Part shown: piece after piece, positions 14,085-52,937 of the stretch
Layout: each line of letters begins with the position of its first letter
Position numbering within the stretch: position 1 is the stretch's first letter
IMG/VR virus record: IMGVR_UViG_2883475777_000001
From: a virus
Taxonomy: Duplodnaviria > Caudoviricetes
Length of the DNA: 64,000 nt
Reading direction: 5' to 3' (one strand)
The notes under the pieces: generated by a model
The model's database searches: none
Seen by the model: the letters and a program-made list of their open reading frames with translations, nothing else
Told to the model about the DNA's origin: nothing
Program-made: the position numbers and the translations under genes

Positions 14085-14426
14085 TTACGGCGTGAGCTTG
14101 GCGCGAACGCTGGCGTCAGCGTCAGCCGCGTCTGCGACCGCTTTGCCGAGCAGCTTGTTCGCGCCGCCGCCATCGGTCGTAACGGCCACGTCATTGGCGT
14201 CATCCCAGTACGCCAGGTCGCCTGTTGAGAACGTCACACCGCCGCCGGCCTCCTTGGCCACGTCGAAGACGCCTTCCACGGCCAGAGCGCCGAGCGTGTT
14301 GGCCTTGATCTCTCGTTTGGCGATGCCAACCAGGTCGCTTTGCACCACCACATCGCCCGGAGCGACGTCCGCCCCAGGCGTGTGGTCGATGGCTGCGCCT
14401 TCGTGAACAAAAGTTGCTTGAGCCAT
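14085..14426 (-). CDS. DUF2190-family capsid cement/decoration protein
   Basis: FVHEGAAIDHTPGADVAPGDVVV...GALAVEGVFDVAK...YWD. Confidence 0.8.
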   Translation of the reverse strand: MAQATFVHEGAAIDHTPGADVAPGDVVVQSDLVGIAKREIKANTLGALAVEGVFDVAKEAGGGVTFSTGDLAYWDDANDVAVTTDGGGANKLLGKAVADAADADASVRAKLTP

Positions 14427-14471: not shown

Positions 14472-16505
14472 TTACGCTTCGCCCTTGGCTTTCACGCCAC
14501 CGCGCGAGTCTTGAAGTGCCACCCCGAAGTCGTGGTAACCTCGCATCTGGACACCGAGCTTGTTGAAGTCCGCCTCGGCCGTTTCGATCGTCGGGGCCTC
14601 TTGGCCGTTGAGGAATGCGACCTCGATGACGGGCAGGTCGGTCGACTCGGCCAGCAGATACCAGGCCTTCGACGAATTGCCCGTGTATTGGGCGTTGGAC
14701 AGGTAGCGACTGACCTCGACGCGGAACTTGCCCTGGTGCGGATTGGACACCGGGTACTTCGTGGTGGTCGTCGTGTCCCGCAGTTCCATCGACTTGAAGA
14801 GCTGCGAGCCGATGGCTGATAGCGACGTCGGCACGAGCAAGATCGCCGGCATGATGCCGATCGGCTTGCCGTCGCCATCGACCTGATCCATGAAGGTCAC
14901 TTCGCCTTCGGTCAATCCGTCGATCGACAGCGCCGTGCTGGCACCGGTGATGTAGTTGTTGTTGCCCGCCGTGAAGAAGGCGCTGTTGGCCAGGAACGTT
15001 GACCAGAAGACGTCATTGATCTTCAGACCGCTGCCCCGACCAAGCTTGCGCGGCACGGTGGTGATGGCATTCAGGTCGTCGTTGATGATGTCGCGGCGAT
15101 CGATCGAGAGCATCAGGCCGTAGGTGTCGGCCTTGTTCTCGTACTTCTCTTCGCCGAGCGTCCCGTGCTTGAGCTCGCCGCCGGGTGCGACCTGCTCGTA
15201 TTGATCCTTGCCGACCAATCGGTAGCTGGTCACGGTCTTGAAGTCGCTCACGTTGCGCACTGCCGTAACGTTCCGCCAGGTCCGCTCGACGCTGAAGAAG
15301 CCATCGAGCAGGAATTTGTTAGCGACGTTCGACAGGATGCCGCCGATGTCGACGGTCGAGAATCCGGCTTCGAGCGTCGGGTTGAAGGCGTAACGCAACA
15401 CAGCCCGGCTGTCGCGGAAGTTGCGGCCGGTGTAGCCGTTGGCCCATGCCGCTTCGAGCAGCAGTTCCTGCAGCCCGATGCCGCCGCGGAATCGCTCCGT
15501 CGCGGCGTCGAGCGTTTGACCGTCGAACATGGCGTCGATCTGGTCCACGTGCCCTGTCAGCAGGCACGCCGCCTCGAGCACGCGGGCATTGATCGTCTTG
15601 TCGTGCATGTGAATCGCCGGCGTGCGGGGCCGGTTGGCGCGAAGCACTTCCAATTCACAGCGCGTCACGTCCCAGCCTTCACCGATCGCCTTGGCCTCGA
15701 TCTCAGGAAAACGGCCCGCGCACAGTTGGCGGATCGCCGAGATGCGACTGACTTCGGCAGCAGCCTGCGAGCGGATTTCATCGACGGCGGAGCCGGCGGT
15801 CACAGCAGGGGCCTGCGTTTGTTGGTTCGCTTGGTGCGAATCCCGCTCGTTCGCGTCGGTATCTGTGGCGGCAGTGGTGTTTTCGGGGTCCATGTCGGAA
15901 TTCTCCTCTTGCTTGTCGGTATGGTTGGCAGCGGCTGCGACCGTCGCGCTGGTCTGCCCATCCGCGCCGAGATCGACGAAACTGATCTCACTGAGCGTGG
16001 ACTTGCGCACGACGTTGAGCGGGCCGGCGTGCTCCTGGCCGTTGACGATTACCGTTTGGCGTTCCTTGACGAACTCGAACTCATCGACGCTCGCTCCCAC
16101 GGATGCCTGCCAGGGGAATCCGTTCTTCGAAGAGGCGACGACTTCGCGGGCGGCTGCTGTGTCGCGGGACACAATGCCCGTTGCCACCAGCTGCCCGCCG
16201 TCGATGCGGATGTTGTCCGTGTGCCCGACGCCGGACGTCGGGTCATGACTGAAGCGGATCGGCCGCGACTGCGAGGGAATCCCCAGTCCCGCGAGGTCGA
16301 TGATGACCGGAAAACGCCAGCCCGCGATCCGCATCGGTGCGCCGGTGTAGGCGACCATTCGGAATCGGGGCAGCGCGGGCGCGGAGCCTTCATCGCCGGC
16401 TGACGCGACGTCGATCATCGCCGTCGCGGTGAGTTGCAGCGTGCTGGGCACGTTCTGCTTTTCAGGCTGCGCGGGCGGGCGCGTCTTCGTTTGCTTCTTC
16501 GCCAT
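14472..16505 (-). CDS. Prohead protease-major capsid fusion (helper prophage)
   Basis: N-terminal FRMVAYTG...FSHD...FPWQASVGA protease-like domain; C-terminal capsid domain (GGELKHG, SIDRRDIINDDL, HDFGVA). Confidence 0.88.
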   Translation of the reverse strand: MAKKQTKTRPPAQPEKQNVPSTLQLTATAMIDVASAGDEGSAPALPRFRMVAYTGAPMRIAGWRFPVIIDLAGLGIPSQSRPIRFSHDPTSGVGHTDNIRIDGGQLVATGIVSRDTAAAREVVASSKNGFPWQASVGASVDEFEFVKERQTVIVNGQEHAGPLNVVRKSTLSEISFVDLGADGQTSATVAAAANHTDKQEENSDMDPENTTAATDTDANERDSHQANQQTQAPAVTAGSAVDEIRSQAAAEVSRISAIRQLCAGRFPEIEAKAIGEGWDVTRCELEVLRANRPRTPAIHMHDKTINARVLEAACLLTGHVDQIDAMFDGQTLDAATERFRGGIGLQELLLEAAWANGYTGRNFRDSRAVLRYAFNPTLEAGFSTVDIGGILSNVANKFLLDGFFSVERTWRNVTAVRNVSDFKTVTSYRLVGKDQYEQVAPGGELKHGTLGEEKYENKADTYGLMLSIDRRDIINDDLNAITTVPRKLGRGSGLKINDVFWSTFLANSAFFTAGNNNYITGASTALSIDGLTEGEVTFMDQVDGDGKPIGIMPAILLVPTSLSAIGSQLFKSMELRDTTTTTKYPVSNPHQGKFRVEVSRYLSNAQYTGNSSKAWYLLAESTDLPVIEVAFLNGQEAPTIETAEADFNKLGVQMRGYHDFGVALQDSRGGVKAKGEA

Positions 16506-16941
16506 CTTCGTCCTCCTCGATGTCGTCGTTGGTCGGTGGAACTGCCGCAGGTGTCAGCCCGAGTTCCTGCATCAGCGAGAATTCCTTGGCCCGCTGGCGC
16601 AAGGCTTCTTCCCAATCGCGCCCCTGCCGGGCGTATTCGTGAGCAAGGGTGGTGGTGAGATTGGCCAAACGGGTCGCTTGGGCGCTGGCTTCTTTGGCGG
16701 GGTCCACATGCTCGTGGCCATCCCAAAACCATTGATGGGGCCATTGAGCGATCGGCCCAGCGTCCGCGGGCAAGAGTCCCGGAATGAGCACCGCTTCGTC
16801 GAACCAAGCGGCCAGCACTCGATCGAGCACAACCGATTCCAGTTGGGCCTGCTCGACGCGGATCGATTTGAAGTACGTCTGATGATCCAGACGGCCCGAG
16901 GCGTAGTTGTATCCCGAGCTGTTTCCCGCCGCGACGTTGAA
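16462..16941 (-). CDS. Portal protein, 3' part (split by integrated element)
   Basis: FNVAAGNSSGYNYASGRLD is the lambda-type portal C-terminal motif; in frame with the 5' part at 27389-28372. Confidence 0.9.
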   Translation of the reverse strand, partial: FNVAAGNSSGYNYASGRLDHQTYFKSIRVEQAQLESVVLDRVLAAWFDEAVLIPGLLPADAGPIAQWPHQWFWDGHEHVDPAKEASAQATRLANLTTTLAHEYARQGRDWEEALRQRAKEFSLMQELGLTPAAVPPTNDDIEEDEDGEEANEDAPARAA

Positions 16942-16961
16942 CGGAGCGCAAGAGGCGGGAT
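16931..16961. other. Left att junction (core TTGAA plus inner arm CAAGAGGCGGGAT at 16949-16961)
   Basis: Arm is the exact reverse complement of 27361-27373. Confidence 0.85.
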
Positions 16962-16985
16962 AAGAGCGAACAATGCAGAACGCGT

Positions 16986-18824
16986 CTATTCGGCGGCGAT
17001 CCAACCCTTTTGATGGCCGAGGTTGTTAATCTTGCCGCTTAAGACGGCCTGCGCAAGGAGGCGAGAAGCGTACGGCCGTCGCACGCCGAGATGGTCGGCT
17101 ACGTTGCCAAGGAACACCACGTCGTCCTGTTCGCGGACGAAGCGCGCGGCGTCCCGCCAGCGACCGGGACTGGGAACGTCATCATCGGTAATTGGAATCG
17201 TGCCATCGATGCCCAGGTCGTCGCGAAGTTCGATCGCGCCGTCCCACAGCGTGATCCGGTGCTTGCCGTCGCCACGACGCTCGCGACGAAGAATGATCCG
17301 CTTCACGGTCTGGCGAATGGCGAACGCGAGCTTCTCACGGTCCGCTTCCGACAGGCACTCCAGCAGTTCGTCCAACCGTGCGATGACCTCCAGCGCTTCC
17401 GGCGTCGGTGCTTGCTCGCCCTGCACCTGGTGCAGCTTCTCTTTGAGCTCCGATTCCTGTTTGCGCCACGTCGCCAGCAGCTTCGAGATACCGGGAACGT
17501 CCAACGGATCGGCCAGGGCCAGGTTCTCCGTGCCCCGTTCGATCTTGGCCCACAAGTCGGCAAGCTGCGATTCGTACCGACCGACATCGGTCTGAACCTT
17601 TCTCGTGCGACGCGTGATCTCCTTGCGGATCGCTCGCTTTGTGCGTTCGTCCGACATGAACGCCTGTAACTTGGACAAGACGCCCTGCTCGATGGTCTCC
17701 GCGCGGAAGCTTGGCCGATCCGATTCCTCCGGGTGTTCCTCGAATTCGCGGGGAGGCAGCGAATAGTACCGTCGCACGACCGCGCGTTGCGAATGGCTCA
17801 TGGTGCAGCCTTGCAGTCTGCGGCCGTCGCCGAGAAAGACAACTCCAGTGAGCAGGTACTTGCCTGGCGTTGGAGCCTTGCACGGCTCGCTGTTTCGCTG
17901 GAGCTGCTTCTGCGCGCGGTCGAATAACGCGGGTGTTACGAGCGGCTCGTGGGCGTCTTCGCATGTCACGCCACCATCATCGTAGAGACTGCGAAACTTG
18001 CCGCGCCGCCGCTTCTGGCCGGCAACGATCCTTCCCACGTAGACCGGATTCGTCACCGTGCGTCGAACACTCGTGGCGTTCCACCGGTTGCCATGCATCG
18101 TTCGGTAGCCTTGCCGATTGAGCTGGCGGGCCACGGACCCGCACGACGAGCCTTTTGCAACGGCCTCGAACATCATTCGCACCGCTTCGACAGCTCGCAC
18201 GTCGGTTGAGATGACCAGTCTCGACGACCATTCAATCGGACGCCGGAACTTCTCCGTTGGCGATACGCGGCGGACGACGACACCCGTTTCGTCGAGAATC
18301 TCCCGGTCGTAGCCGAACGGTGGCCCGCCCTGCTTCTGGCCACGACTGATTGCCAGTCGCTTGCCACTAATAACCCGGTCGGCCAGTTTCACCGATTCCT
18401 CGCGTGCGCCGTACTGATCGACGATGGCGGTGATCACGCCGCCCAGGTTGTTGAAGTCGAGTTCGCCGCGCTGGCAGGTGATGATCTTCACGCCGGCGTC
18501 CCGTAGCTGCTTCCAATGGATCATCGCGTCGAACACGTCCTCGCGCGACATCCGGCTTTGTTCAGAAAGCAGAACAGCGCGAAACGCGCCGCCTTTTGCG
18601 TCACCGAGCAACCGCTGGAAGTCCTTGCGGTTGTTCGATTCCGTGCCGGTCAGTCCGTGGTCTTCATACCAGCGGACGATTTTGTAGCCGGCGCGATCGG
18701 CCAAGGCCTCAATGTCCTTTCGTTGCCGCGCGGGGCTATCCTGCTGTTGGTCGGTGCTCATGCGGATGTAGCCAACCGCCGGAACGCGCGACCCGTTTCT
18801 CCGTGTAGAATTGCGTTTAGCCAT
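16986..18824 (-). CDS. Large serine recombinase (satellite integrase)
   Basis: GYIRMSTDQQQDS catalytic motif, SEQSRMSR, recombinase domain, coiled coil; start MAKRN at 18824. Confidence 0.92.
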   Translation of the reverse strand: MAKRNSTRRNGSRVPAVGYIRMSTDQQQDSPARQRKDIEALADRAGYKIVRWYEDHGLTGTESNNRKDFQRLLGDAKGGAFRAVLLSEQSRMSREDVFDAMIHWKQLRDAGVKIITCQRGELDFNNLGGVITAIVDQYGAREESVKLADRVISGKRLAISRGQKQGGPPFGYDREILDETGVVVRRVSPTEKFRRPIEWSSRLVISTDVRAVEAVRMMFEAVAKGSSCGSVARQLNRQGYRTMHGNRWNATSVRRTVTNPVYVGRIVAGQKRRRGKFRSLYDDGGVTCEDAHEPLVTPALFDRAQKQLQRNSEPCKAPTPGKYLLTGVVFLGDGRRLQGCTMSHSQRAVVRRYYSLPPREFEEHPEESDRPSFRAETIEQGVLSKLQAFMSDERTKRAIRKEITRRTRKVQTDVGRYESQLADLWAKIERGTENLALADPLDVPGISKLLATWRKQESELKEKLHQVQGEQAPTPEALEVIARLDELLECLSEADREKLAFAIRQTVKRIILRRERRGDGKHRITLWDGAIELRDDLGIDGTIPITDDDVPSPGRWRDAARFVREQDDVVFLGNVADHLGVRRPYASRLLAQAVLSGKINNLGHQKGWIAAE

Positions 18825-18837
18825 GATTGCCCTTTCC

Positions 18838-18905
18838 AAACCAAAGGGTGTGAATGGTAAGAGCCGCCGGCGTGTTCGCTGCACGCCGACGGCTCGCTTT
18901 GGTTT
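18838..18905 (-). promoter_or_regulatory. Nested hairpin in the integrase leader
   Basis: 14-bp stem with 1 mismatch (18861-18895) inside AAACCAAAG/CTTTGGTTT arms, adjacent to the RBS. Confidence 0.5.
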
Positions 18906-18929
18906 CAGACGTTGGGTGGTTTCGACTGA

Positions 18930-19133
18930 TCATCGGCCTTCCAAGATTCCGACGACCGCCGCCAACCTCTGGTTGACTTCAGCCATCGTTCCAACATGCG
19001 TCCATGCGATGTCGACCTCGCCGCCGGGTGCCGGTTGGTCCTGCAACAATTCGCGGATGCGTTGCAACAGGTCCTGCGCAACCAGGTGGGACGTCTCGTA
19101 GGCCGGTTCGGCTTGCAATCGTTGTCGTGTCAT
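18930..19133 (-). CDS. Small hypothetical protein, paralog of 35517-35744
   Basis: AYE..H.VAQDL.QRI.ELL.D.PAPG...W..VG...EVN.RL shared; ATGA coupling. Confidence 0.75.
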   Translation of the reverse strand: MTRQRLQAEPAYETSHLVAQDLLQRIRELLQDQPAPGGEVDIAWTHVGTMAEVNQRLAAVVGILEGR

Positions 19134-19405
19134 TTGGACGCCCTCCGTTTCTTCGCCGCCAAGGTGAAACGACCGGGGCCGGTCTTCTTGAAACGGGCGT
19201 CCTTTCCCTTGCCGATGTCTCGAATGATCGAAGCGTACAAGGTGGCCTGCGGCGTCTTGCCGCCGGGCGAGGTCCACAGGTTTTTCCTTTCCATCGCCTC
19301 GATCATCTCTTTGCAGCTCATGGGCTTTCGGGCTTGCCGCAGCACCTTGATGGCTGCATCGATCTGGCTCAGCTTCGGTTGGGTTGCGGTCTTCTTTCCT
19401 GCCAT
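19130..19405 (-). CDS. Winged-helix (HARE-HTH-like) protein, paralog of 36120-36521
   Basis: DAAIKVL...PMSCKEMIEAM...LWTSPGGKTPQATLYASIIRDI. Confidence 0.8.
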   Translation of the reverse strand: MAGKKTATQPKLSQIDAAIKVLRQARKPMSCKEMIEAMERKNLWTSPGGKTPQATLYASIIRDIGKGKDARFKKTGPGRFTLAAKKRRASK

Positions 19406-19496
19406 CGTTTCGTCTCCCAATCGGATTGGTGTTGTTGCGTCGCGAACGCCGCGACGCGTGACAGGACAGTTACCTCGCGTTTTCGGCGTCATCAAG

Positions 19497-19811
19497 CTAG
19501 GCGTTGGCATCCTTGGCCAAGTCCGCCGAATCGTCGCCAGACGGGCCAACTGTGGGCGACGGGTTGGCCATTTGGGCGTCCAGCCAAGGGTATTCGCCAG
19601 CCCGAATCGACGCTTCGATCTGTTTCAGAAATTGCCATTCCCACAGCGGGACCATTACGACGTCCTGCTTGCTGTAGCGCTGGATCACAATCGGCTCGTC
19701 GGTGTTGGCCACGGATTGATACGCCCATCCCAGGCTGTCTCGCAGGTGGGTGATCCGCATGACGTGCTCGGGCGTTGGTTCGGGCGTTGGTTCGGGCATT
19801 GGCTCGGACAT
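19497..19811 (-). CDS. Phd/YefM antitoxin-like protein
   Basis: MRITHLRDSL...V..TDEPIVIQRYSKQDVVMVPLWEW; start uncertain. Confidence 0.55.
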   Translation of the reverse strand: MSEPMPEPTPEPTPEHVMRITHLRDSLGWAYQSVANTDEPIVIQRYSKQDVVMVPLWEWQFLKQIEASIRAGEYPWLDAQMANPSPTVGPSGDDSADLAKDANA

Positions 19812-19839
19812 GTACAAGAAAGAAACTGTAGGTAAGTTT

Positions 19840-19888
19840 GCGACTGTTCCCGCGGGCGTCTCCTGAAGACGGTCGCGAGGTAGGACCC
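19840..19888 (-). other. Putative packaging (cos-like) signal, satellite copy
   Basis: 34/49 gapless identity to 39234-39282; starts with GGGTCCT. Confidence 0.6.
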
Positions 19889-19913
19889 GTTCGCCCAACG
19901 GAGGCGATTCAAG

Positions 19914-20147
19914 GTTGCCACCAAGACTGCCAACATGCCCCCGTCTCTTTTTGGTGGCAATCTTGGCAGTGTTGGCAGCCTTCCCCAAAAACACCGGGAA
20001 CCACGCGTTCCCTCTACGGCAATTTGGTGGCCATCTTCCTTTTTGGTGGCAGTGTTGGCAGTCTTGATTCGGTGAAAGATGTCCAAGGCTGCCAAGACTG
20101 CCAACTTATTGAGACGGGGGTTGGTGGCAGTCTTGGTGGCCATCTTG
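19914..20147. repeat. Iteron-like cluster (TTGGTGGCA/TTGGCAG units, both orientations); putative satellite origin
   Basis: About a dozen short units immediately downstream of the helicase gene. Confidence 0.65.
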
Positions 20148-21716
20148 ATCCGGCAGGCTCCAATACCACTTGCCACCATCCTTCTTGGACCGACCTTCGA
20201 TCTCCTTGAACGCACGCCGGAGCGTTCGCTCCGAGAAGCCGTTCTCTCTCGCATCCGCAATCACCTGTTTCGATGGCTGGCGACCTTCAGCGAGCTCGTT
20301 GCGCAACCAGGCGACGACCTCACGTCGCTCCGCGCCTTGAGTGCTCTTGTCGCTGGTCGATTTCAATTCCGCCGCGAAGGCCTCGTCGGCGTGCATGCGA
20401 ACCGGTTCGAGTTCCCATGCCACGCGGCTGTCGACGATGCGGTACGCCAGGCCGTCGGGATCGCGTGCGAGGTTTAGCTTGCCGGGCAGGAACAATCGTC
20501 GCTCGGGATTCTCCTGGTCCTTGGCCACCGCCCACACGGCGCGTGAAGCGGCCGCGAATGCCAGCGAGCCCATCGCACGGTACACCGCTTTCGCGCCACC
20601 CGACTTGCTGAGATGGGTCACAGCGACAATCGCCACCCGATGGCGGCCAGCCAAATCGGCAAGCGGCGCGAGTAGACCTCGGACATCCGTGTTCTTGTGG
20701 GAATCAACGCTGCCGGTGTAGGCCGAAATCGGATCGATCACGACCAGGCGCGCGTCGGGCATCTCTTGCATGACTTCCTCAAGGCGTGGGAGGTCGGCCT
20801 CAAGCGAGAAGTGCCGGCGTCTGCCACCTTCGGCCACGCCTTCGACGGCCACTATGTTCCCGTCGTCCGCGCCGGCCTTGTCCAATCGCGGCGCGATGGT
20901 GTCGGCCAGATCGTCCTCGGCGTTGAAGAGCACGACGCCCGCCGGCGACTGCTTGAGCAAGGGCAGGTCGGGCCACGGCTCGCCGCGCGAAACGCGAGCG
21001 GCGATGTCCAGCGTGACGAATGACTTTCCCAGACCTGGATCGCCGGCCAACAGAGTCAGCTTGCCCAGCGGAATCCGCCCAGGCCACAACCAGTCAAGTA
21101 GTTCACGTTCCACGTCTTTCAACCTCCTCTTGATCGCGTGAGGCGGTGCCGGTGGTCGCCAGAGCGGCGCTGGTGCCGGTGTTGGCTTTGCCGGCTTCGG
21201 TGCCTCAAGCATGCCGCGCAGTCCCTCCGTCAGAAAATCCTCGGGCCGTGGCGGTGGTACGATCCGCTTCGGATTGATCTCCGCTTTCGCCCACGCATCG
21301 ACCGCCTTCTGCCACGGCGGCACAATCTCGTCCGCGACTTGGCCGTTGGTCGCACCCGCTTCGCACAGTTCCCACCAGAGTTGCTTGGCCATCTCCATTG
21401 CCTGGCAACGTCCGCGCGTGCGACATGCGGCAACCTCGTGGCCCGTGTGGTAGACCACCTGGTCGCTCTCCATGTCGGGATCGCCGTACATCTCGGCGCT
21501 CGGCACGAGCAGTTCGGCTTCCCGTCTTGCCTGCCGCCGGTCGTTCCAGGCCAGGGCGATGGCTGCCTCGTCGGGCGCATCCCAGGTGGCGACCACCATA
21601 GCGCCCTCCATGAAGGCTTGGCGATAGACGCGTTCGTTGGTTTGGCGCTCGGGCGTGACAGGCCAATGCGGACCGTCGTCGTAGAAGCGAACCGTCTCAG
21701 GCGGCAGCGTCACCAT
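20106..21716 (-). CDS. AAA_25/RepA-like helicase
   Basis: WLWPGRIPLGKLTLLAGDPGLGKS, FNAEDD, LVVIDP, THLSK, GSLAF. Confidence 0.88.
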   Translation of the reverse strand: MVTLPPETVRFYDDGPHWPVTPERQTNERVYRQAFMEGAMVVATWDAPDEAAIALAWNDRRQARREAELLVPSAEMYGDPDMESDQVVYHTGHEVAACRTRGRCQAMEMAKQLWWELCEAGATNGQVADEIVPPWQKAVDAWAKAEINPKRIVPPPRPEDFLTEGLRGMLEAPKPAKPTPAPAPLWRPPAPPHAIKRRLKDVERELLDWLWPGRIPLGKLTLLAGDPGLGKSFVTLDIAARVSRGEPWPDLPLLKQSPAGVVLFNAEDDLADTIAPRLDKAGADDGNIVAVEGVAEGGRRRHFSLEADLPRLEEVMQEMPDARLVVIDPISAYTGSVDSHKNTDVRGLLAPLADLAGRHRVAIVAVTHLSKSGGAKAVYRAMGSLAFAAASRAVWAVAKDQENPERRLFLPGKLNLARDPDGLAYRIVDSRVAWELEPVRMHADEAFAAELKSTSDKSTQGAERREVVAWLRNELAEGRQPSKQVIADARENGFSERTLRRAFKEIEGRSKKDGGKWYWSLPDQDGHQDCHQPPSQ

Positions 21717-21864
21717 CGTTGGCCTCCGCTTGTTTCCGTCGCTTCTCGTAGATGTCGATCAATACGGCGGCCCAGGCGTCGGCGACTTCCTCAGGAAGCT
21801 TCTCCTTCGTATCCGGATCCTGCCGGCGCGCATCCTCAGCGCACGGTGTTGACTTGGTTCTCAT
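21697..21864 (-). CDS. Small hypothetical protein (55 aa)
   Basis: GAGAGGG RBS; EEVADAWAAVLIDIYEKRR helix; overlaps the helicase start. Confidence 0.5.
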   Translation of the reverse strand: MRTKSTPCAEDARRQDPDTKEKLPEEVADAWAAVLIDIYEKRRKQAEANDGDAAA

Positions 21865-21989
21865 GACCCTCTCCTCGAAACCGCGAATTCTGCTGTCGCA
21901 GAGACAAATCGGCGTCGCGGCCTGCAAGTCCTGGTGCAAGCCACGATTCGCCACGCGGGTGCGGGCCAGTCCATTGAGTGCGGCGCGGA

Positions 21990-23831
21990 CTATTCGCCGT
22001 CGGCCTTGTACGCGGCGCGATAATCGCCCAGCGCGGAACCGAAGTCGTGATAGACTCGCCACGTCGCGGCGAGCTTGTTGGGATCGGCGTCGAAGCCGAA
22101 AAACTCAACCGTCGGGCTCTGCTTGCCCTGCAGGAATGCCACGACGATTGCCGCGTCCTGCCGGCCGGCGAACAGATACCATGCCTTATCGCTGGTGCCG
22201 GTGAAGCGAGCTGAGTTCGACAGCCGCGGTTCGACCTCGAGCGACACGACGTTCTTGAGGGCATTGCCCGTCGGCTCGTCGTTGTTCGCCCGCTGGATAA
22301 AGTCGGACTGCAGCAGCTCCTTGGCGGTCTGCTGCAACTCGGGCGGCACAAGTAACGTGCGAGGTCGGATGTCGAGGTCGCGATCCTCGTCGTCCCGCTG
22401 CGCCATCATGCGAGCGATGCCGGTCGCCAGCGCGATCGCGTCGAGCGTCGATCCGGCACCGGTGTCAAAGTTGCCGTTGCCGGCGCTGAAGAACGAGCCG
22501 GCCCCACCGAGCAGCGTCGTGTAGGCCAGATCGCTGACCGCGCGCATGGCCGCTCGACCGAGCGACATCGCCGTGTCCTCGAACAGACCGAGGTCGTCGT
22601 TGATGATGTCGCGCCGGTCAATCGACAGCATCTTGCCAAAGGTATCGACCGAATACTGGTAGGTCGCCTCGTCGATGCTGCCGTGCTTCAGTTCGCCGCC
22701 CGGCGCAACCTGCGTCAGGTCACCGGTATCACTCGGTCGGATGCCGGTGTGATCCTTGAAGTCGGCAGCCGACTTGATCGCCGCGAACGCACGCCAGGTG
22801 GCCGGCGACTCGGTGTAAGCATCGAGAAGCACCTTGTTCGCCGCATTCCCAAGCGCGACGGGAAGAGAGTAAGTCGACAGCGCCGCGCGGATCAGGGCCT
22901 CGCGTCCCGATGGCGCGTCGCGCTGTTCGACCATCAGTGCCGCCCGGCATAGATCAACGAGGCTCGTGGCCCGCAGCTCGCGGGCTTGTTGGGCGGTTTG
23001 CGGGCCAAGGTGCTTCTCGACCAGATTCTCGTGGCCCATGTGGACCAGCACGGCCGCTTCGATCACGTCGCGCGTGGGCGCGACCGTCGTCGTTTGGATG
23101 TACGGACCGCGCGGGCGCGACGCTCGCAGCACGGCCAGTTCCGTCTGCTGTCCGGACCAGCCTTCTCGGATGGCCTGCGCCTCGATGTCGCCGTGTTCGC
23201 CATTGCAGGCACGACGAATCGCCGTGATCCGTTCGGTTTCGGCAGCCGCTTCGGCACGGATGTCCTCGGCGGTTTTTTCTGTGGTTGTCATGAGAGCCTC
23301 TTCTCCTTCCTGCGAAGCGGCGATCGCGACCGACGTTCCGGCATCGGCACCAATCGCCACAATGCTGACTTCCTTGAGCGCGGACGACCGCACCAGCGTG
23401 AACCCGCTACCGGTCGCCCTGATCGTCCGCCCGTTTACTTCAACAATGTCGCCGGCGCGTACTCGCTTCGATTCGCCCGGAGCAACACCGACCGACGCCT
23501 GAAACTGAAACCCGCTGCGAGCCAGCTCGATGATCTGCTTCGCGGCCTCATTGGTGGGCGCGATCGTGCCGGCGACTAGCAACTTGCCGTTGGCGACCGA
23601 CGCCTGCCCGAAACCCACAACACCTCGCAGCGTAGAGTCGTGGTCGGCCAGGATGCTGATCTGAGACGCCGAGACGTCGACGCCGGCCAGGTCGAGAACT
23701 AGCGGTCCCCATCCAGGCACGACCATCTCACCGCCTGTGTAGGCGACGATGGTGACGGCCGGCGTTTTGCCGGCGGCCTGAATATCCACGTCGCTTGTCG
23801 CGAGCAGCAGTTCTTCAGTCGCTGTGGACAT
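21990..23831 (-). CDS. Second protease-major capsid fusion (satellite-encoded)
   Basis: IVAYTGG, FQFQASVG, QVAPGGELKHG, LSIDRRDIINDDL, YHDFG: divergent homolog of 14472-16505. Confidence 0.88.
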   Translation of the reverse strand: MSTATEELLLATSDVDIQAAGKTPAVTIVAYTGGEMVVPGWGPLVLDLAGVDVSASQISILADHDSTLRGVVGFGQASVANGKLLVAGTIAPTNEAAKQIIELARSGFQFQASVGVAPGESKRVRAGDIVEVNGRTIRATGSGFTLVRSSALKEVSIVAIGADAGTSVAIAASQEGEEALMTTTEKTAEDIRAEAAAETERITAIRRACNGEHGDIEAQAIREGWSGQQTELAVLRASRPRGPYIQTTTVAPTRDVIEAAVLVHMGHENLVEKHLGPQTAQQARELRATSLVDLCRAALMVEQRDAPSGREALIRAALSTYSLPVALGNAANKVLLDAYTESPATWRAFAAIKSAADFKDHTGIRPSDTGDLTQVAPGGELKHGSIDEATYQYSVDTFGKMLSIDRRDIINDDLGLFEDTAMSLGRAAMRAVSDLAYTTLLGGAGSFFSAGNGNFDTGAGSTLDAIALATGIARMMAQRDDEDRDLDIRPRTLLVPPELQQTAKELLQSDFIQRANNDEPTGNALKNVVSLEVEPRLSNSARFTGTSDKAWYLFAGRQDAAIVVAFLQGKQSPTVEFFGFDADPNKLAATWRVYHDFGSALGDYRAAYKADGE

Positions 23832-24411
23832 TGGTCGCCTCCTGCGGTTCGAGTTTGGTTCCCTGCGGGAAGAACCGGATGTAGGCGTACTCGTTCGGAT
23901 CGGTGGACGGTTCGATCACGGTGACCAAGCCGAGCACGTCGAAGCTCGTCGAGAACCCCATCTTGTAACGAGCGGCTGCAACGCGACGCGCCTTCACGCA
24001 CTGGCCGAACCGCAGGTTGTTGACCCAGCAGTAGTGCGTCCAGGACGACCATCGGTCCTGGTCGTTCTCATAGATCCACTCGGCGGCCGCGTCGATGTCC
24101 TCCTTGCTCCACTCGAGCCAATCGTTGCCCGTCCAGGTCATGCCTGGCCGCGCTCCCTTCGGCTGGACGATTCCTTTCTCGGCGAGCTGCCAGAGGTAGA
24201 TGCCGTCGACGTACAACCCTCGGAGACGCAGTTCGCGGAATGCGCCTTCCGTCGACTTGGGATAGATCAGCGCCGTGCTGGAGTTGCGACTGCGCATCTT
24301 CTCGTCGTCGATGTTGGGTAGCAATTCCATCAACTGATCGAAGTCCTCGCGGAGCCAATAGTGCTTCTTGTCGGCCCGGGCTTCGCGGTCCTGCTGTTCA
24401 GTTTGCCTCAT
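23815..24411 (-). CDS. Hypothetical protein (198 aa)
   Basis: Coupled to the sigma gene (ATGA) and overlapping the capsid start; AGAAGGA upstream. Confidence 0.7.
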   Translation of the reverse strand: MRQTEQQDREARADKKHYWLREDFDQLMELLPNIDDEKMRSRNSSTALIYPKSTEGAFRELRLRGLYVDGIYLWQLAEKGIVQPKGARPGMTWTGNDWLEWSKEDIDAAAEWIYENDQDRWSSWTHYCWVNNLRFGQCVKARRVAAARYKMGFSTSFDVLGLVTVIEPSTDPNEYAYIRFFPQGTKLEPQEATNVHSD

Positions 24412-24917
24412 CCTTGTTCTCCTTCTTTGATGATTGAGAGTTCGCGTTGGACGGTTCGCTTGGGAATTCCCGTCTCCCTGGCGATTTCGTCGACCGTGCA
24501 GCCGGCCATCCACAGCGTGCAGACTTCCCGCCTTCGTTCCGGCAGGCTGCCGAGATAGTCGCGAATCAACCCGTCGACGGCCGGGTCGCGACAACGCGAA
24601 GTGCGCGGCGTCGCATAACCCTCGATGTTTCCCGGCTGGTTGTCAGAGTCGATTCGTGAGACAGCCTTCGGCTCGCGTTTGCCTTCCGAGTAGAAGTCAC
24701 GGAGGAGGTTGTACTGCCGGCTCGCCATGCGGTTCTTGGCAAGACCGACGTCCTTCGTCTCACACAAGACCTGCCAGCCGGCCAGAAACAGCTCCTGAAT
24801 CGCATCCTCCGTGCGATGGTCGTCCCAGCCATGCGGTCGCTTGGCCGCGATGAGTTTCTTGACCAACGCCTCCGCAAACGGGTGGAGATCATCGGGGGTG
24901 TCGAAGTAATCGGTCAT
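24408..24917 (-). CDS. ECF-like sigma factor (satellite)
   Basis: EDAIQELFLAGW (region 2-like) and LPERRREVCTLWMAGCTVDEIARETGIPKRTVQREL (region 4.2 HTH). Confidence 0.75.
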   Translation of the reverse strand: MTDYFDTPDDLHPFAEALVKKLIAAKRPHGWDDHRTEDAIQELFLAGWQVLCETKDVGLAKNRMASRQYNLLRDFYSEGKREPKAVSRIDSDNQPGNIEGYATPRTSRCRDPAVDGLIRDYLGSLPERRREVCTLWMAGCTVDEIARETGIPKRTVQRELSIIKEGEQG

Positions 24918-25251
24918 CCAATCTCCTTTGACCGGCAGGCTTCCTGCGTCTACTCAACTAATCCACGCGCCTCCGCGCAAACGCGCCATCGTAGACTCGA
25001 AATCTTCTTGAGACCTCGGCCTCCATCGGATCGTCAGTTGTTTGCGTATTAGCTGCGCGGAAATATCACTGATTTTTCTCATGTCCGACGATTGAACTCG
25101 CGTTGCAGAATGATAAACTGGGCAATTTAGTGGAGGCGAGAGCAGTTCGCTGCCGATTCGTGGAGTCGCTGAAACTTTTTGGACTCCGAAGTCGTCTCTC
25201 CTTGATAGAGAGGTTTCCATTTTCCCTAGCCGGCCAACCACGAGGTGTCAA

Positions 25252-27237
25252 ATGCAAAGACGATTCACGGTTGTTATCACAACCTTACTGTTGACTCTCT
25301 CTTCTACTGTTTCTTATGCCCGCACCTGGACCGAGCGGTCATCCGGACGAACAGTCAATGCAGATCTCGTCTCCTTTGCTGGCGACGTCGTAAAGATCAG
25401 ACGCCAGAGCGATGGCAGAGTCTTCGCTGTCCCCGTCGAACGGTTGAGCGACGTTGACCGAACCTTTGTGGAATCTGCTTCTCAAACGCGCCCTGAGGCA
25501 ACGCCCCGAAAAGGCAACGTTAGGTTTGTGGCGTTTAATGCGCAGGCCCAGGATGAGTACAGTGCTGAGCAACTCAATGCGTCGAAACGCATCGTCTGTG
25601 TCTGGAAAAAAGGCACGGCTCAAGCAGCCATGAGGACGATTGAAGCGGTCGGTCTGAAGGTCACGTACCTTGGCTCTGCAATCCCGTTCGGCGTTTGCAC
25701 CGGACAACTCACCGAGGACGGACTCAAGCGGCTGAGGAGCGACCCGTCGATCCAAAGTGTCGAACCTGACATCGAGTTGGTCGTTGACGACGCGCAGCCC
25801 GAAGTGCGGCAGATTACGGACGAAGTCTTGGCAGCATACGAACACGCTGGCCGTATGGTGTGCGTCTGGAAGAAGGGGAAGAAGAAGGAAAGTCTCGAGA
25901 TGCTTGCGCAAATGGAGAAAGAAGGAAAGCTGCGCGTGATTCACAAACTCGAGACCACTCCAATCGCCTTCTGTGACTGGAAGCCGCCACTGCAGCAAGC
26001 AACGCTGGTGCAACTGCAAAAATCGCCAATGCTGGATTACGTTGAACCAGATTTGACGCTGGTGAAGGACAACCCAACCAAAGGTCGAGAGATTGTATTC
26101 CCGAACGGGACACCCAAGACGGTCGTGTCTAAAGGCGTTGTACTGACCACGCCAGATGATCCAGAGATTGCCAAGCTCTGGGGAATGGATTCCATCAAGG
26201 CGAAGAAGGCGTGGACCTGTGCCAACCAAACAGATGTTGTTGTGGCAGTGATCGATTCGGGCGTCGATTATAATCATCCGGACCTGAAGGCCAACGTGTG
26301 GGTCAATACGGGTGAGATCCCTAACAACGGAGTTGATGACGACAGTAACGGCCACAAGGATGACTACTACGGCCTGAACTTCACTCAACTTCCACCTACA
26401 ACGGATACGCTCGATAGATACGGACACGGTAGCCACGTCGCCGGAACTATCGGTGCCGTTGGCAACAACAAGCTCGGAGTCGCAGGCGTCAATTGGCGTG
26501 TGCAGGTCATGGGACTCAAAGTTTTTGATGACGCTGGAACTGCACCAGTTGGAAGCGCTCTAGCTTCTGCCATCGATTATGCTGTCGCGAGGAAAGTTCG
26601 CGTCATCAACTTGAGTCTTCGCTGGGGAAGTGAGCGGGCTTTCTTGAAACGTGTTATTGATGGAGCGGAAGACAAGGGCGTTCTGATTGTATGCTCAGCT
26701 GGCAATCTAAATCGTGGTGATGATCCACGCACGATTGATAATGACGTCGTGCCCCAGTTCCCCGCGTCCTTTCCGAATGACAACGTCATCGCGGTTGCGA
26801 ACATCACGGAGAGAGAACAGCTTAATGCGAGTAGTCATTTTGGATTGCGGAGCGTCGATTTGGGTGCTCCCGGGACAGACATTTACAGCACTGTGCCAAC
26901 TTCTGTAAAGGCATCGGGTTATGACTCGTACACTGGGACATCCATGGCAAGTCCGCATGTCGCAGGTGCGGCGGCGCTGATTTGGGGACATAAGAGGTAT
27001 AGCAGTGGCGATTTCAAGGCGATTCGAAAGCTACTTCTAGACAATGCTCGCTCAATTCCCGCGTTGTCGGGAAAGTGCGTAACTGGCGGCACTCTTGACA
27101 TTGGCTTCTTGTGTAAGCAGAGCCCGCCACCTATCGGAAAGAAACCGCCAATCGTGATTTGCCCCCCACCTCGTTGTTACATCCCGTGTCCCCCGCGCCG
27201 CCACGTCTTTTATCGCTTCCGTTGTGGTAGTCGGTAG
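25252..27237 (+). CDS. Secreted S8 subtilisin-like protease with SHD1-like N-terminal domain
   Basis: Signal peptide; RTWTERSSGRTVNA (SHD1-like); two I9-like propeptide repeats; triad VIDSG, HGSHVAG, GTSMASPHVAG. Confidence 0.92.
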   Translation: MQRRFTVVITTLLLTLSSTVSYARTWTERSSGRTVNADLVSFAGDVVKIRRQSDGRVFAVPVERLSDVDRTFVESASQTRPEATPRKGNVRFVAFNAQAQDEYSAEQLNASKRIVCVWKKGTAQAAMRTIEAVGLKVTYLGSAIPFGVCTGQLTEDGLKRLRSDPSIQSVEPDIELVVDDAQPEVRQITDEVLAAYEHAGRMVCVWKKGKKKESLEMLAQMEKEGKLRVIHKLETTPIAFCDWKPPLQQATLVQLQKSPMLDYVEPDLTLVKDNPTKGREIVFPNGTPKTVVSKGVVLTTPDDPEIAKLWGMDSIKAKKAWTCANQTDVVVAVIDSGVDYNHPDLKANVWVNTGEIPNNGVDDDSNGHKDDYYGLNFTQLPPTTDTLDRYGHGSHVAGTIGAVGNNKLGVAGVNWRVQVMGLKVFDDAGTAPVGSALASAIDYAVARKVRVINLSLRWGSERAFLKRVIDGAEDKGVLIVCSAGNLNRGDDPRTIDNDVVPQFPASFPNDNVIAVANITEREQLNASSHFGLRSVDLGAPGTDIYSTVPTSVKASGYDSYTGTSMASPHVAGAAALIWGHKRYSSGDFKAIRKLLLDNARSIPALSGKCVTGGTLDIGFLCKQSPPPIGKKPPIVICPPPRCYIPCPPRRHVFYRFRCGSR

Positions 27238-27272
27238 CGGCTTGCAGAGTGACGACTAGTAGTGCTAGTTAC

Positions 27273-27308
27273 GCCCAGCAGGAGCATTCCTGCTGGGCAT
27301 TTCTTTTT
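27273..27308 (+). terminator. Rho-independent terminator after the subtilase
   Basis: GCCCAGCAGGA-GCAT-TCCTGCTGGGC (11-bp stem) followed by ATTTCTTTTT. Confidence 0.8.
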
Positions 27309-27360
27309 GACTCAATGACGTTGATACAGAAATGCCGAATCGAACAGGTTGTTGACGAAA

Positions 27361-27394
27361 ATCCCGCCTCTTGAACGCCCTTCTTGAAAGGCAT
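27361..27394. other. Right att junction (inner arm ATCCCGCCTCTTG at 27361-27373, core TTGAA at 27384-27388)
   Basis: Inverted copy of the left arm; portal homology resumes at 27389. Confidence 0.85.
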
Positions 27395-28372
27395 GTTCAG
27401 GCAGCGGGCAATCTCGTTGAGAATCTCGTGCTTAAACTCGCCATAGGTCGTCGCGGGCTGTTCGGCTTCGAGCTGGCTCATCTTCCAACCGCCAGGCATG
27501 GTGAGCAGCGCCCGCTGTTCCAGTTCGATGGGCTCGAATGGTTCGGCGGCGTCCGCCTCGCCGTTGGCTGGCGCGTCGGTGTAGAGGATGCCGGCGAAGT
27601 CGGCAGCCGTTTCAGCGGCCGCAAGCACGGCCAGCGTGAATCGCCGCAACTGTGCAAACAGCGGCAGCGCCGGCATGATGTCGGGAATGCCGCGTGCCTG
27701 GCCGGGTCGGTCGAGGCGGAACAAGTGAATCATCGCTTCGGCGGGCAGGCGGTCGTAGTCTCGCGTCAGCCGAACGGCTTCGCCTGGATGCGACTTGAGC
27801 ACGTGGTATTCGATCGGATTGCCGGCGTCGTCAAACACGATGCCGTCGATGCCATTGGTGATCAAAGCATTCAAGTCGGGCGTGCAAACCTGGTCGGCTT
27901 CAATCAACCGCAGGTCGAGTTGGATCGCCGTCGGCAGCACGGGATTGCTTGTCAACACGGCGAACGCTTCACCGTCCTGGGCGCGCGACATTCGCATCGT
28001 GCGAAGTTTCTCGGGCAGGTTGACGGCTCTGGACCACGCGCCAAACTCTCGTTCGATCCGGCGATTGGCGTCGGCGTCATCCGTCAGTACCTGCAGCCGA
28101 GGTCCGGTGCCGATCGCGTCGTTGGCCAGCGTCAACACAATGCCACGGGCGTAGCTGTTGTTGGCTACCTCATAGCGTGCTCGATTACGCAGAATGCGAC
28201 GTACCTCGGCGCTATTGGCCGCGTTGGCGGACAGTCCATCCGCGCCGGCCCAATGCCGACGGTTATCGTCGTTGGTGACGGCCGCATCGTAGCGGGCGCG
28301 AAGCACTCGCGCGGCCCGCGTCAACGGGCGGCTAGTCGTCTTGGTGAACAGATTGGCGAGCCAACGGAACAT
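27389..28372 (-). CDS. Portal protein, 5' part (lambda family); restored gene would be 487 aa
   Basis: RYDAA, LRNRARYEVANNSYARG, DGEAF, RPGQARGIP, EIARCLNMPF; ORF-track tail to 27269 is read-through into the element. Confidence 0.92.
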
Positions 28373-28729: not shown

Positions 28730-29560
28730 TTAGCGCAAGTCGGGTGTGCGCCTGGAGAGGACTGCAAGGACCTCGTCATGGCCCCATCTGGAACCGACCT
28801 CCTTGCGTCGATGTTGAGCCCACCCGCTTGCCGACATGTGATGCTTGGCATCAAGGATGGTGGCGTCCGCGCCACGGTTCAATAGAAACGACACCATGTT
28901 CGGCTTCGCTTCCCATGCCGCCCAGTGCAATGCGGTCGCTTTCCCATCCGTCACGTTCACATCCAGACCGCTATCGAGCAAGTATTCCACGAGGGGTACA
29001 CGATCGCAGACTGCGGCACACCTCAGCACATCAAAGACTTGCTCATCGGAAAAGGATGCCGACTCAAGGTCCGCCCGCACTCGATCGAGTTGTCCAGCTC
29101 CGGCCGCGATTCGTGTCGATAGGATTTTCGCACCCTCTCTTACGAGCAGGTCGACAACTTCGACCATGCCGAAATGAACGGCGAAATCCAGCGGCGTGCC
29201 ATCGGGGATGCCGGGATACGAGGCAACGGCTTCCATGTTCGCGCCGGCGTCGATCAAAACTTCCGCGACGCCCGCTTCTCCCAAACTCGCTGCGCCGTGA
29301 AGAGGCGTTTCGCCTGCGCCGGGAAGTCCGTCCACCGGCGCGCCCGCGTCGATCAGAATCTGTGCCAACTCCGCCTGCCGGCCATGATCCCAGAGTTGAT
29401 TGAAGGGGCCATCGCTCAAGAAGTGAAGCGGCTCAGTCTGGCAGCTGTTCAGAATGCTGCCCCAGCGGATCGGCGTGGAAGCTAGTTTTGGGTTTTCATT
29501 CAGAAGCTGTCGGGCGCGTTCGACATCGCCAGCGACAATCGCCTTCTTAAGTTGACTCAT
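28730..29560 (-). CDS. Ankyrin-repeat protein
   Basis: GETPLHGAASLGEAGVAEVLIDAGA, GTPLDFAVHFG, ATALHWAAWEA. Confidence 0.9.
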   Translation of the reverse strand: MSQLKKAIVAGDVERARQLLNENPKLASTPIRWGSILNSCQTEPLHFLSDGPFNQLWDHGRQAELAQILIDAGAPVDGLPGAGETPLHGAASLGEAGVAEVLIDAGANMEAVASYPGIPDGTPLDFAVHFGMVEVVDLLVREGAKILSTRIAAGAGQLDRVRADLESASFSDEQVFDVLRCAAVCDRVPLVEYLLDSGLDVNVTDGKATALHWAAWEAKPNMVSFLLNRGADATILDAKHHMSASGWAQHRRKEVGSRWGHDEVLAVLSRRTPDLR

Positions 29561-29561
29561 T

Positions 29562-29978
29562 TCATTGGGCCTTCAATCCTGCCACAACCTGGCAGCAGTC
29601 TGATTTCTTTTGAGTCTGGCATTCCTCGAGCGCGTTCTTCAACACTTTGCGGACGTGCCGAAGATCCTTCAGCCGCTGCTCGATGTCCGCCAGTCGCTCC
29701 TCAATCAGGCTCTGCACGTTGCCGCACGTCGGAATGCCGCCTTCGTCGTCGGAGAGCAACGCCTTCACGTCCTCGAGCGTAAACCCGATCGCTTGTGCCG
29801 CGCGGATGAACTTCAGCTTGTTGAGCGACTCACCGCTGTACAACCGGTAGTTTCCCTGGCTGCGATTCTCGGGTTCAACGAGACCGATTCGCTCATAGTA
29901 GCGAACAGTCGTTGTCGGAATGTCAGCCGCTTTGGCCAACTGGCTGATGGTGTATTCGTCGGGCATGGCAATGCTCAA
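29562..29978 (-). CDS. MerR-family divalent-metal regulator
   Basis: YTISQLAKAADIPTTTVRYYERIGL; Cys at PTC, EEC and SDCC match the Hg/Zn/Cd/Pb-sensing subgroup layout. Confidence 0.92.
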   Translation of the reverse strand: MSIAMPDEYTISQLAKAADIPTTTVRYYERIGLVEPENRSQGNYRLYSGESLNKLKFIRAAQAIGFTLEDVKALLSDDEGGIPTCGNVQSLIEERLADIEQRLKDLRHVRKVLKNALEECQTQKKSDCCQVVAGLKAQ

Positions 29979-30021
29979 ATCGCCCTTGGAGAACTGATTT
30001 TCAGTTTTTTGGCAAATCCGC

Positions 30022-30053
30022 TTGACCTTGCACTTAGGTGCAACCTCGATAAT
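30022..30053 (+). promoter_or_regulatory. MerR-type promoter/operator
   Basis: TTGACC, 20-bp spacer, GATAAT; dyad TTGCAC-TTAG-GTGCAA (30028-30043) inside the spacer. Confidence 0.85.
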
Positions 30054-30094
30054 AGACGCAGATGACCGGATTCACAACATAGGGCTGAGAAGCC

Positions 30095-31285: not shown

Positions 31286-31312
31286 CCAATTCATCCGAAA
31301 GTGATTCACAAC

Positions 31313-35744: not shown

Positions 35745-35771
35745 CCCCCAACCACGAAAGAAAACCCAACC

Positions 35772-36521: not shown

Positions 36522-36543
36522 GCCACGCGACGGGTTCCGACCC

Positions 36544-39179: not shown

Positions 39180-39233
39180 CGGAATCCTCTCGGTTCAGAT
39201 TTCGGACAAACAAAACAAACTGTGATGCCAATG

Positions 39234-39282
39234 GTGGCTGTTCCCGCGTGCCTCACCTGAGGATTTGGGCCGGGAAGGAACC
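39234..39282 (-). other. Putative packaging (cos-like) signal, prophage copy
   Basis: GGTTCCT...CGCGGGAACAG; between the replication and packaging modules; matches the satellite copy. Confidence 0.55.
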
Positions 39283-52933: not shown

Positions 52934-52937
52934 GTGT

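Follow-up and report, generated by a model that had tools for sequence, protein, structure and literature searches.

The 64,000-nucleotide stretch of IMG/VR record IMGVR_UViG_2883475777_000001 (Caudoviricetes), referred to here as the window, carries a siphovirus-type prophage whose portal gene is interrupted by a second element of 10,447 bp. This element encodes a 613-residue protease-scaffold-capsid fusion, a replicase with an iteron-type origin and a large serine recombinase (LSR), and no recognisable portal, terminase or tail gene. Its interpretation as a phage satellite is well supported by comparative genomics; it is probably hyperparasitic on a family of planctomycete siphophages, is embedded here in its helper prophage and would follow the life cycle proposed below. 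The boundaries of the element and the two parts of the interrupted gene are as follows:

16937..27388, minus strand: whole integrative element, 10,447 bp between the TTCAA crossover repeats, defined by its junctions, attP and the intact portals of relatives
27389..28372, minus strand: helper lambda-type portal gene, 5' part (residues 1 to about 328), Pfam Phage_portal_2, E 2.7e-52
16462..16936, minus strand: helper portal gene, 3' part, defined by the reading frame after the junction and the intact portals of relatives

TTCAA repeats, read on the minus strand, are located at both junctions (27384-27388 and 16937-16941). The helper portal is broken at ...CLNMPF|NVAAGNSSGYNY...; likeness to portal proteins ends at about 27389 and the continuation, NVAAGNSSGYNYASGR..., is found from 16936. 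The 38 codons past the portal junction consist of element sequence, closing in a stop. Joining the element ends generates an attP with 13-bp perfect inverted arms that are 22 nt apart and centred on AA, the predicted arms ATCCCGCCTCTTG...CAAGAGGCGGGAT lying around TTCAA, while the predicted attB of the restored portal reads ...AACATGCCTTTCAACGTCGCG.... Intact portals of related phages correspond exactly to the two flanks joined, and the CLNMPFNVAAGNSSGYNY stretch at attB is almost invariant in 15 related portals. Genome G086 contains a close relative of the helper that lacks the element and in which the terL, portal and ParB-methylase genes are all intact (overall identity 86-98%; terL 92%, portal 88%, capsid 90%, tape measure 90%). 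The features of an LSR element, namely Resolvase and Recombinase domains and dyad-symmetric att sites, are present, and a zinc ribbon is found in relatives. By its junctions the element is a precisely bounded insertion of the LSR type in the portal gene, with its core genes co-oriented with the interrupted gene, and its excision would rebuild an intact helper portal gene encoding 487 aa. The preliminary description of this DNA had proposed that the helper portal is restored by excision, which agrees with this copy but does not extend to the family, since relatives reside in terL, in the ParB-methylase gene or in the chromosome.

Capsid precursor and gene content of the element

Two capsid precursors are encoded in the window, one by the element and one by the helper:

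21990..23831, minus strand: protease-scaffold-major-capsid fusion of the element, 613 aa (Pfam PF25209, phrog_4523, alignment to the helper's 677-aa protein)
14472..16505, minus strand: helper's own protease-scaffold-capsid fusion, 677 aa, with the same architecture as the 613-aa protein (Pfam, PHROG)

Residues 315-610 of the 613-aa protein match Pfam Phage_capsid_4 (PF25209) with E 1.8e-42 and 146.9 bits against a cutoff of 27 bits. Among the PHROGs it is assigned to phrog_4523, 'major head and protease protein' (E 7e-73), with phrog_133 and phrog_3244 also matching, and the N-terminal 200 residues match PHROG head-maturation-protease families. An S78-like prohead protease, scaffold-like helices and an HK97-fold major capsid domain are united in one polypeptide. 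The 613-aa and 677-aa proteins are 36% identical from end to end (BLASTP, E 3e-111), with 35% identity in the protease part, 42% in the shell domain and 56% over the scaffold-like residues 189-245, the stretch of the 613-aa protein closest to the helper. With only 36% identity, the element protein is a divergent paralogue and not a recent duplicate, confirming its earlier description as a divergent homologue of the helper fusion. No third capsid precursor of either type was found elsewhere in this genome. His64 and Ser113 are unchanged in an alignment of seven sequences of satellite and helper types. They are presumably the counterparts of the catalytic His65 and Ser114 of HK97 gp4, and are candidate catalytic residues of the satellite protease.

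The remaining genes of the element are the following:

25252..27237, plus strand: S8 subtilase with SHD1 domain, in the cargo slot (domain match, G+C)
24408..24917, minus strand: sigma factor of the extracytoplasmic function (ECF) type, 169 aa (Pfam Sigma70_r4_2 and Sigma70_ECF; phrog_1740; AlphaFold2 (AF2) model)
23815..24411, minus strand: winged-helix protein, 198 aa, its stop overlapping the capsid start (AF2 model, weak MerR-type matches)
20106..21716, minus strand: AAA_25 (RepA/DnaB-like) replicase, 536 aa, with a C-terminal DNA-binding part (Pfam AAA_25, E 4.5e-38; PHROG primase/helicase families)
19910..20105: iteron-type origin directly after the replicase gene, at least 10 copies of a TTGGCAG-type unit of about 9 nt, direct and inverted
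19497..19811, minus strand: Phd/YefM-like protein, about 104 aa (weak Pfam PF02604; conserved in relatives)
19130..19549, minus strand: HARE-HTH protein, 66% identical to the helper copy at 36072-36521 (plus strand)
18930..19133, minus strand: 67-aa protein, homologous to the helper's 75-aa protein at 35517-35744 (plus strand)
16986..18884, minus strand: large serine recombinase, 632 aa (Pfam Resolvase and Recombinase), ending about 45 bp from the junction

Judged by these families, the element has integration and excision functions of its own (the LSR and its dyad attP) as well as its own replication functions (the AAA_25 protein and the iterons). The Phd-like gene measures about 104 aa from its true start, against 165 aa for the open reading frame (ORF) as called. 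The 169-aa protein is modelled by AF2 as a three-helix domain, a linker and a four-helix domain, and its best PDB matches are ECF sigma factors throughout, over about 160-175 columns; with this fold and these matches it was rejected as a small terminase. It has no detectable similarity to the 236-aa sigma factor of the helper. The 198-aa protein belongs to a family of 84 homologue clusters, every one of them unnamed and without a Pfam assignment, and itself has no Pfam or PHROG match. Its AF2 model (pLDDT 83) displays a winged helix of the MerR/excisionase (HTH_17) type at residues ~48-120, with weak structural matches (Foldseek E>=0.17, VIA Z<=4.4, Atlas TM<=0.36), and no similarity was detected to the presumed TerS of the helper (161-aa ORF, 35029-35514). 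A portal, terminase or scaffold was rejected for this protein, as it has no Pfam or PHROG match and only weak winged-helix structural matches; it may be a regulator, a recombination directionality factor or a TerS-like protein. The subtilase is of secreted type and carries an N-terminal hydrophobic segment. Its G+C of ~0.53, against 0.62-0.64 across the remaining element, suggests that this gene was recently acquired.

Portal, terminase, connector and tail families were not detected among the element ORFs in Pfam and PHROG searches and in a structure search of the two unassigned proteins. Likewise, helper virion proteins used as tblastn queries found no homologue inside any of ~30 related elements. 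Thus, the earlier statement that the 10.4 kb hold no other recognisable structural gene is borne out, while the alternative that the 198-aa ORF and others make up a full packaging set is contradicted by its MerR/excisionase-type winged helix.

Relatives of the element in Planctomycetota

The 613-aa protein was used as a query against 200 genomes of the same bacterial family, one genome per prokaryote species, IMG/VR and metagenomes of the Joint Genome Institute (JGI). About 60 loci with capsids 65-94% identical were recovered, under the host labels Pirellulales, Pirellulaceae, Thermoguttaceae, Planctomycetaceae and Gemmataceae; the family is widespread in Planctomycetota and apparently undescribed. 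A core comprising the ECF sigma factor, the winged-helix protein, the capsid fusion, the AAA_25 replicase with iterons, the Phd-like protein, the HARE-HTH protein and the LSR is conserved in ~30 loci, as determined by tblastn of all window proteins where the available sequence is long enough. One sub-type has the sigma and winged-helix genes in reverse order. The left end of relatives carries varied cargo, including Eco57I/TaqI-type methylases with partner ORFs, an SDR, a tyrosine integrase, a transglutaminase-like protein and a redoxin. Element length, taken from the 10 copies in which both ends could be located, is 10.25-12.0 kb in spite of the differing cargo.

A maximum-likelihood tree was built from 47 capsid precursors, 28 of them satellite-type (most assigned by neighbouring genes, a few by identity only). 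These 28 form one clade (SH-aLRT 99) apart from the helper-type clades. The capsid is the best-conserved gene of the element, with 67-94% identity against 27-43% for the recombinase, and its pairwise dN/dS values of 0.06-0.29 indicate purifying selection. Copies with different recombinases and targets, such as terL- and ParB-site elements, are interleaved in the capsid tree; integration modules have thus been exchanged. Flanks could be read in 21 non-redundant copies, 17 of which are inside genes of the same siphophage family. This count becomes 11 of 15 when IMG/VR, which holds virus-like contigs only, is set aside. The targets of the 21 copies are as follows:

ParB-methylase gene, residue ~357: 11 copies (L025=L033, L034, L050, L052, L055=L070, L060, L062, L064/65, L067, L068/69, L073/91)
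terL, residue ~292: 5 copies (L023, L039, L051, L053/56, L054)
portal, residue ~329: 1 copy (this window)
chromosomal sites in sulfatase, esterase, PRC-barrel or GH106 genes: 4 copies (L032, L035/66, L038, L024/43)

This list omits L031, L036, L037/L026, L040 and L057, which lie at contig ends or have no recognisable flanks. The target sites are highly conserved codons in the three helper genes, and in every embedded copy the core is co-oriented with the target gene and the recombinase is located at the downstream junction. In each of seven IMG/VR contigs the element is embedded in or joined to phage genes. The conserved core and the 17 of 21 copies inside related-phage genes agree with the claim of the preliminary description that this is a distinct satellite with a capsid precursor only.

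Several loci depart from the common arrangement. In L023 (3-3065, minus strand) and L034 (14520-17699, plus strand) the recombinase ORF reads stop-free into the C-terminal fragment of the helper gene (terL and ParB-methylase, respectively), giving run-on ORFs of 1021 and 1059 aa that may reflect chance or a recombinase-target fusion while integrated. The closest relative, L031 (CAYPIE010000080.1; capsid 94%, replicase 78%), comes from a metagenome-assembled genome labelled Alcaligenaceae and is probably a planctomycete contig placed in the wrong bin; downstream of it, no homologue of the recombinase was detected. Multiple copies, some of them broken, are found in G116:C15:20288-21590 and in L040, L044 and L047-L049 (MFD02840 bin). 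The broken copies include a capsid gene with residues ~138-316 deleted plus a TGA, split capsid genes and C-terminal fragments. Several and broken copies per genome indicate that the elements proliferate and decay within lineages.

Helper prophage, regulatory links and proposed life cycle

Without the element, the helper prophage is about 33-37 kb long and of siphovirus type. Its head and tail genes comprise terL (gpA type), gpW, portal, capsid fusion, decoration protein, connectors, major tail protein and tape measure, and it further encodes a replication module, the ParB-methylase, its own 236-aa sigma factor and an M78/IrrE-type gene. Its TerS, the 161-aa ORF mentioned above, is presumed from position only. 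Following the helper capsid fusion there is:

14085-14426: head decoration gene, then siphovirus tail genes

A five-gene module of the helper at 35517-37186 (plus strand) opposes the minus-strand late genes and encodes the 75-aa protein, an 83-aa protein, the HARE-HTH protein, a 131-aa protein and a DUF4314 protein, two of which have satellite homologues. A 579-aa ORF at 35232-36971 (minus strand) was discarded as probably spurious, being antisense to five plus-strand genes with proper codon bias. Between helper terL and gpW, a cargo of ~3.9 kb (28730-32575) encodes an ankyrin-repeat protein, a CopZ-MerT-HMA fusion and a thioredoxin-like protein. This block is absent from the otherwise collinear G086 helper and from L051, and L053 carries a different block of 2.2 kb at the same spot, which marks the place as a moron hot spot. 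Adjoining the lysogeny end of the prophage is a complete type I restriction-modification system with hsdS-, hsdM- and hsdR-like genes (50163-56081, minus strand).

Element and helper are linked by a common motif and by two common regulator genes. The motif, GGAAC-N17-CAGTTT, is found exactly twice in the window, 0.8 matches being expected with one mismatch allowed:

19823..19850, minus strand: element copy, before the Phd-like, HARE, 67-aa protein and recombinase genes and after the iterons
39217..39244, minus strand: helper copy, between the primase-polymerase/iteron region and the ParB-methylase gene

A copy with one mismatch is located upstream of terL (35400-35427). Nine further elements and two further helpers carry the motif at the corresponding position, and the form GCGGGAAC-N17-ACAGTTT is found at fixed positions in L032, L034, L035, L050, L051, L054, L055, L057, L064 and L073. 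Since GGAAC is the classic ECF -35 element, the motif is read as a phage-sigma promoter; it is probably a phage promoter of ECF-sigma type, and as such could couple satellite excision to helper development. The 49-nt similarity between element and helper noted earlier is real and conserved across pairs, but its reading as a cos site is the less favoured one, GGAAC-N17-CAGTTT and the copy upstream of terL fitting an ECF promoter better. In a blastn comparison of element and helper for a shared cos site, the matches were confined to the HARE-HTH gene, the 67/75-aa gene and capsid segments. The two regulators in common are the HARE-HTH protein and the 67-aa protein, similar to the helper's 75-aa protein. 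The corresponding helper genes are neighbouring, and that of the HARE-HTH homologue is placed between the terminase genes and the ParB-methylase gene and read from the opposite strand.

Absence of a full virion gene set and possession of integration, excision and replication functions, two of the properties that define a satellite, are both found in the element. Induction by the helper and packaging with its proteins are proposed on circumstantial grounds, namely the embedding (17 of 21), the common promoter-like motif and the two common regulator genes. In the proposed life cycle, helper induction would turn on the satellite recombinase operon through the motif common to both genomes. The element would then excise, leaving the helper portal gene whole again, and would replicate from its own iteron origin, while the satellite sigma factor would drive the winged-helix/capsid operon. 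The 613-aa precursor would assemble on the helper portal into heads sized for ~10-12 kb, to be filled by the helper terminase and completed by helper connectors and tails. As long as it is integrated, the element would gate helper assembly.

The element-to-helper length ratio of 0.29-0.32 is close to that of P4/P2 and SaPI1/80alpha (~0.35 in both), where satellite heads are T=4 and helper heads T=7. A restricted size range and a well-conserved scaffold-like segment are compatible with dedicated small heads built on a common portal, and the formation of such heads on the helper portal is plausible, although short of likely. In its fullest form, proposed tentatively, the satellite would represent a portal-less capsid-forming class, in which a small (T<7) procapsid derives from the element's own protease-scaffold-shell polyprotein, is nucleated on the helper portal and is expressed via the element's own ECF sigma factor, and in which recombinases have repeatedly evolved for the portal, terL and ParB-methylase genes. 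It belongs to the same tentative proposal that, as the LSRs insert into these helper genes, satellite excision would gate helper virion production.

Several observations weigh against this scheme. No free or circular copy was recognised among 42 metagenome or IMG/VR contigs, and terminal repeats were found in none of the 15 metagenome contigs >5 kb (of 35 loci), four of which measure 10.4-11.5 kb. No cos or pac site was identified and no TerS was found in the element. Four copies occupy chromosomal sites with no helper nearby, and the sequence does not reveal head size. In addition, Gram-negative phage-inducible chromosomal islands (PICIs), including the helper-embedded PICIs (HE-PICIs), have a dispensable capsid gene and DNA packaged in helper-sized heads as concatemers (PMC10111431); for this reason a capsid gene by itself is no proof of small heads.

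The strongest rival follows from this precedent. The embedded satellite would be moved in helper-sized heads as concatemers of 3-4 units, or within the helper genome, and the 613-aa protein would only interfere with helper assembly or back it up. Such a capsid is documented in Gram-negative PICIs of E. coli, where the gene is not required and concatemers have phage length (PMC10111431). Here 3.2-3.5 element units would equal one helper genome, and most copies reside in the ParB-methylase gene, which is probably non-essential. Recombinants joining the satellite-type capsid gene to helper head-tail genes also point in this direction. Two loci have such recombinant or deleted forms. At L055 (=L070; 800-13800) a satellite-type capsid gene and a replicase stub run straight into the connector and tail genes of a helper, terL, portal and helper capsid all being absent from between them; at L052 (5184-9332) the C-terminal half of a helper-type capsid gene comes after a satellite-type one, together with the decoration gene. 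Against an accessory role, no other element gene is as well conserved as the capsid precursor, which shows strong purifying selection and has kept its own protease and scaffold segment, and element length is held to 10.25-12 kb. Carriage inside the helper would add 10.4 kb (~+29%), above the lambda-type packaging tolerance (cited also in PMC10111431). An accessory capsid is considered unlikely.

A less probable alternative is a switch of 'regulated gene integrity', like skin/SPbeta-type elements, that spreads with the prophage only and in which the capsid is a captured passenger. Essential late genes (portal, terL) are indeed interrupted without a replacement end, the recombinase sits at the junction and no free copies were seen among the contigs. 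The element has its own replicase and iteron origin, four copies occupy non-phage chromosomal sites and an empty helper exists; moreover, recombinase modules are swapped between near-identical capsid backbones whose capsid gene is under selection. Such a switch is considered decidedly improbable. Finally, a decayed second temperate phage that integrated in the first and lost most of its genes is very hard to credit. In its favour, capsid precursors of this type are common among phages of the bacterial family, and degraded copies occur in G116:C15 and the MFD02840 bin. Against it, ~30 independent loci of several families have one and the same compact gene set, of similar size, with intact frames and low dN/dS, and no larger 'parent' with a portal, terL or tail beside this capsid clade was found.

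Comparison with known satellites and significance

The closest described system is that of the HE-PICIs of Enterobacterales (Tommasini, Mageeney & Williams 2023, NAR Genom Bioinform 5:lqad036; PMC10111431). HE-PICIs measure ~11 kb, are located in and co-oriented with the lambda-type late genes A (terminase), B (portal), C and E (capsid), and often carry a capsid gene alone; their integrase clade has moved between 14 sites (PMC10111431). Among reference Gram-negative PICIs, 21 of 29 carry a major capsid gene and little else, the gene being dispensable for transfer, and at least one capsid-bearing Gram-negative PICI is packaged as phage-length concatemers (PMC10111431). The background given in the preliminary description, in which PICIs and P4 remodel helper capsids and capsid-forming PICIs (cf-PICIs) encode capsid, portal and terminase, was thus incomplete. 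Its claim of a new 'intermediate strategy' was overstated, because capsid-only PICIs embedded in late genes are already known (PMC10111431) and the strategy is therefore not new in outline.

As in HE-PICIs, the element resides in a helper gene with no replacement end, so that the helper gene works only after excision; it has its own replication gene and origin and a capsid gene without portal, terminase or tail; and related integrases are distributed across helper genes, with occasional chromosomal copies. In contrast, a large serine recombinase is found here in place of the tyrosine-integrase/AlpA clade (11capE) that defines HE-PICIs, the hosts are Planctomycetota, the replicase is of AAA_25 and not Pri-Rep type, and an ECF sigma factor is present. 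The capsid is a protease-scaffold-major-capsid fusion and the best-conserved gene, whereas the PICI gene is lambda E-type and dispensable, and the commonest target, the ParB-methylase gene, is no late structural gene. Neither Bro-N nor AlpA gave a family match in the element, and its genes do not follow the four-zone layout of Gram-negative PICIs (integration, Bro, replication, late). On this gene-level comparison the family works like HE-PICIs, yet is an independent lineage.

The cf-PICIs (Alqurainy et al., bioRxiv 10.1101/2022.09.08.507074; SatelliteFinder definition, PMC10085698) likewise have their own capsid and prohead protease, fused in Firmicutes variants, and a similar size (median 14 kb). 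Unlike the element, they carry portal, head-tail adaptor, connector, TerS, TerL and HNH genes (11 core components) and borrow tails only. None of these six components was detected here or in relatives by Pfam, PHROG and tblastn, and as cf-PICIs carry portal, adaptors, TerS and TerL (PMC10085698) the element is not a cf-PICI. P4, Staphylococcus aureus pathogenicity islands (SaPIs) and PICI-like elements (PLEs) resemble it in measuring about one third of the helper genome and in needing the helper portal, terminase and tail, as the element would. They differ in reshaping the helper capsid, through Sid/Psu in P4, CpmA/B in SaPIs and TcaP in PLE (PMC10945586), whereas the element has its own shell protein; no Sid, Cpm or TcaP homologues were detected in it. 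Portal-less and tail-less HK97 'mini genomes' from metagenomes, for which a satellite lifestyle is one hypothesis (Nat Commun 2026, PMC13669383), are also small and combine an HK97-fold capsid gene with the absence of a recognisable portal or tail. Most of them are encapsulin-like, many have Rep/HUH initiators, and no helper has been identified, whereas in the present case physical embedding points out the helper, and the capsid protein is a protease-capsid fusion typical of phages. Virion-encapsidated integrative mobile elements (VEIMEs) are without capsid genes (PMC9618062). Thus, membership in the cf-PICI, P4, PLE or encapsulin groups was ruled out on gene content.

The SatelliteFinder families are essentially confined to Proteobacteria and Firmicutes (PMC10085698), and no description of phage satellites of Planctomycetota was found in the literature searched. 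The family indicates that a helper-embedded lifestyle has arisen independently, with another recombinase class, in a distant phylum and with three helper target genes. It also yields several new LSR/attP/attB sets with defined sites and a candidate phage ECF-sigma promoter, and it cautions prophage annotation, as two capsid genes with a split terL or portal can mark a composite and not a dead prophage. The element provides a test case for a satellite that would supply the shell only, with protease, scaffold and capsid in one gene, and borrow portal, motor and tail. If a portal-less capsid-forming class is real, it would stand truly midway between satellites that remodel capsids and the cf-PICIs, and would represent the first satellite system in Planctomycetota.

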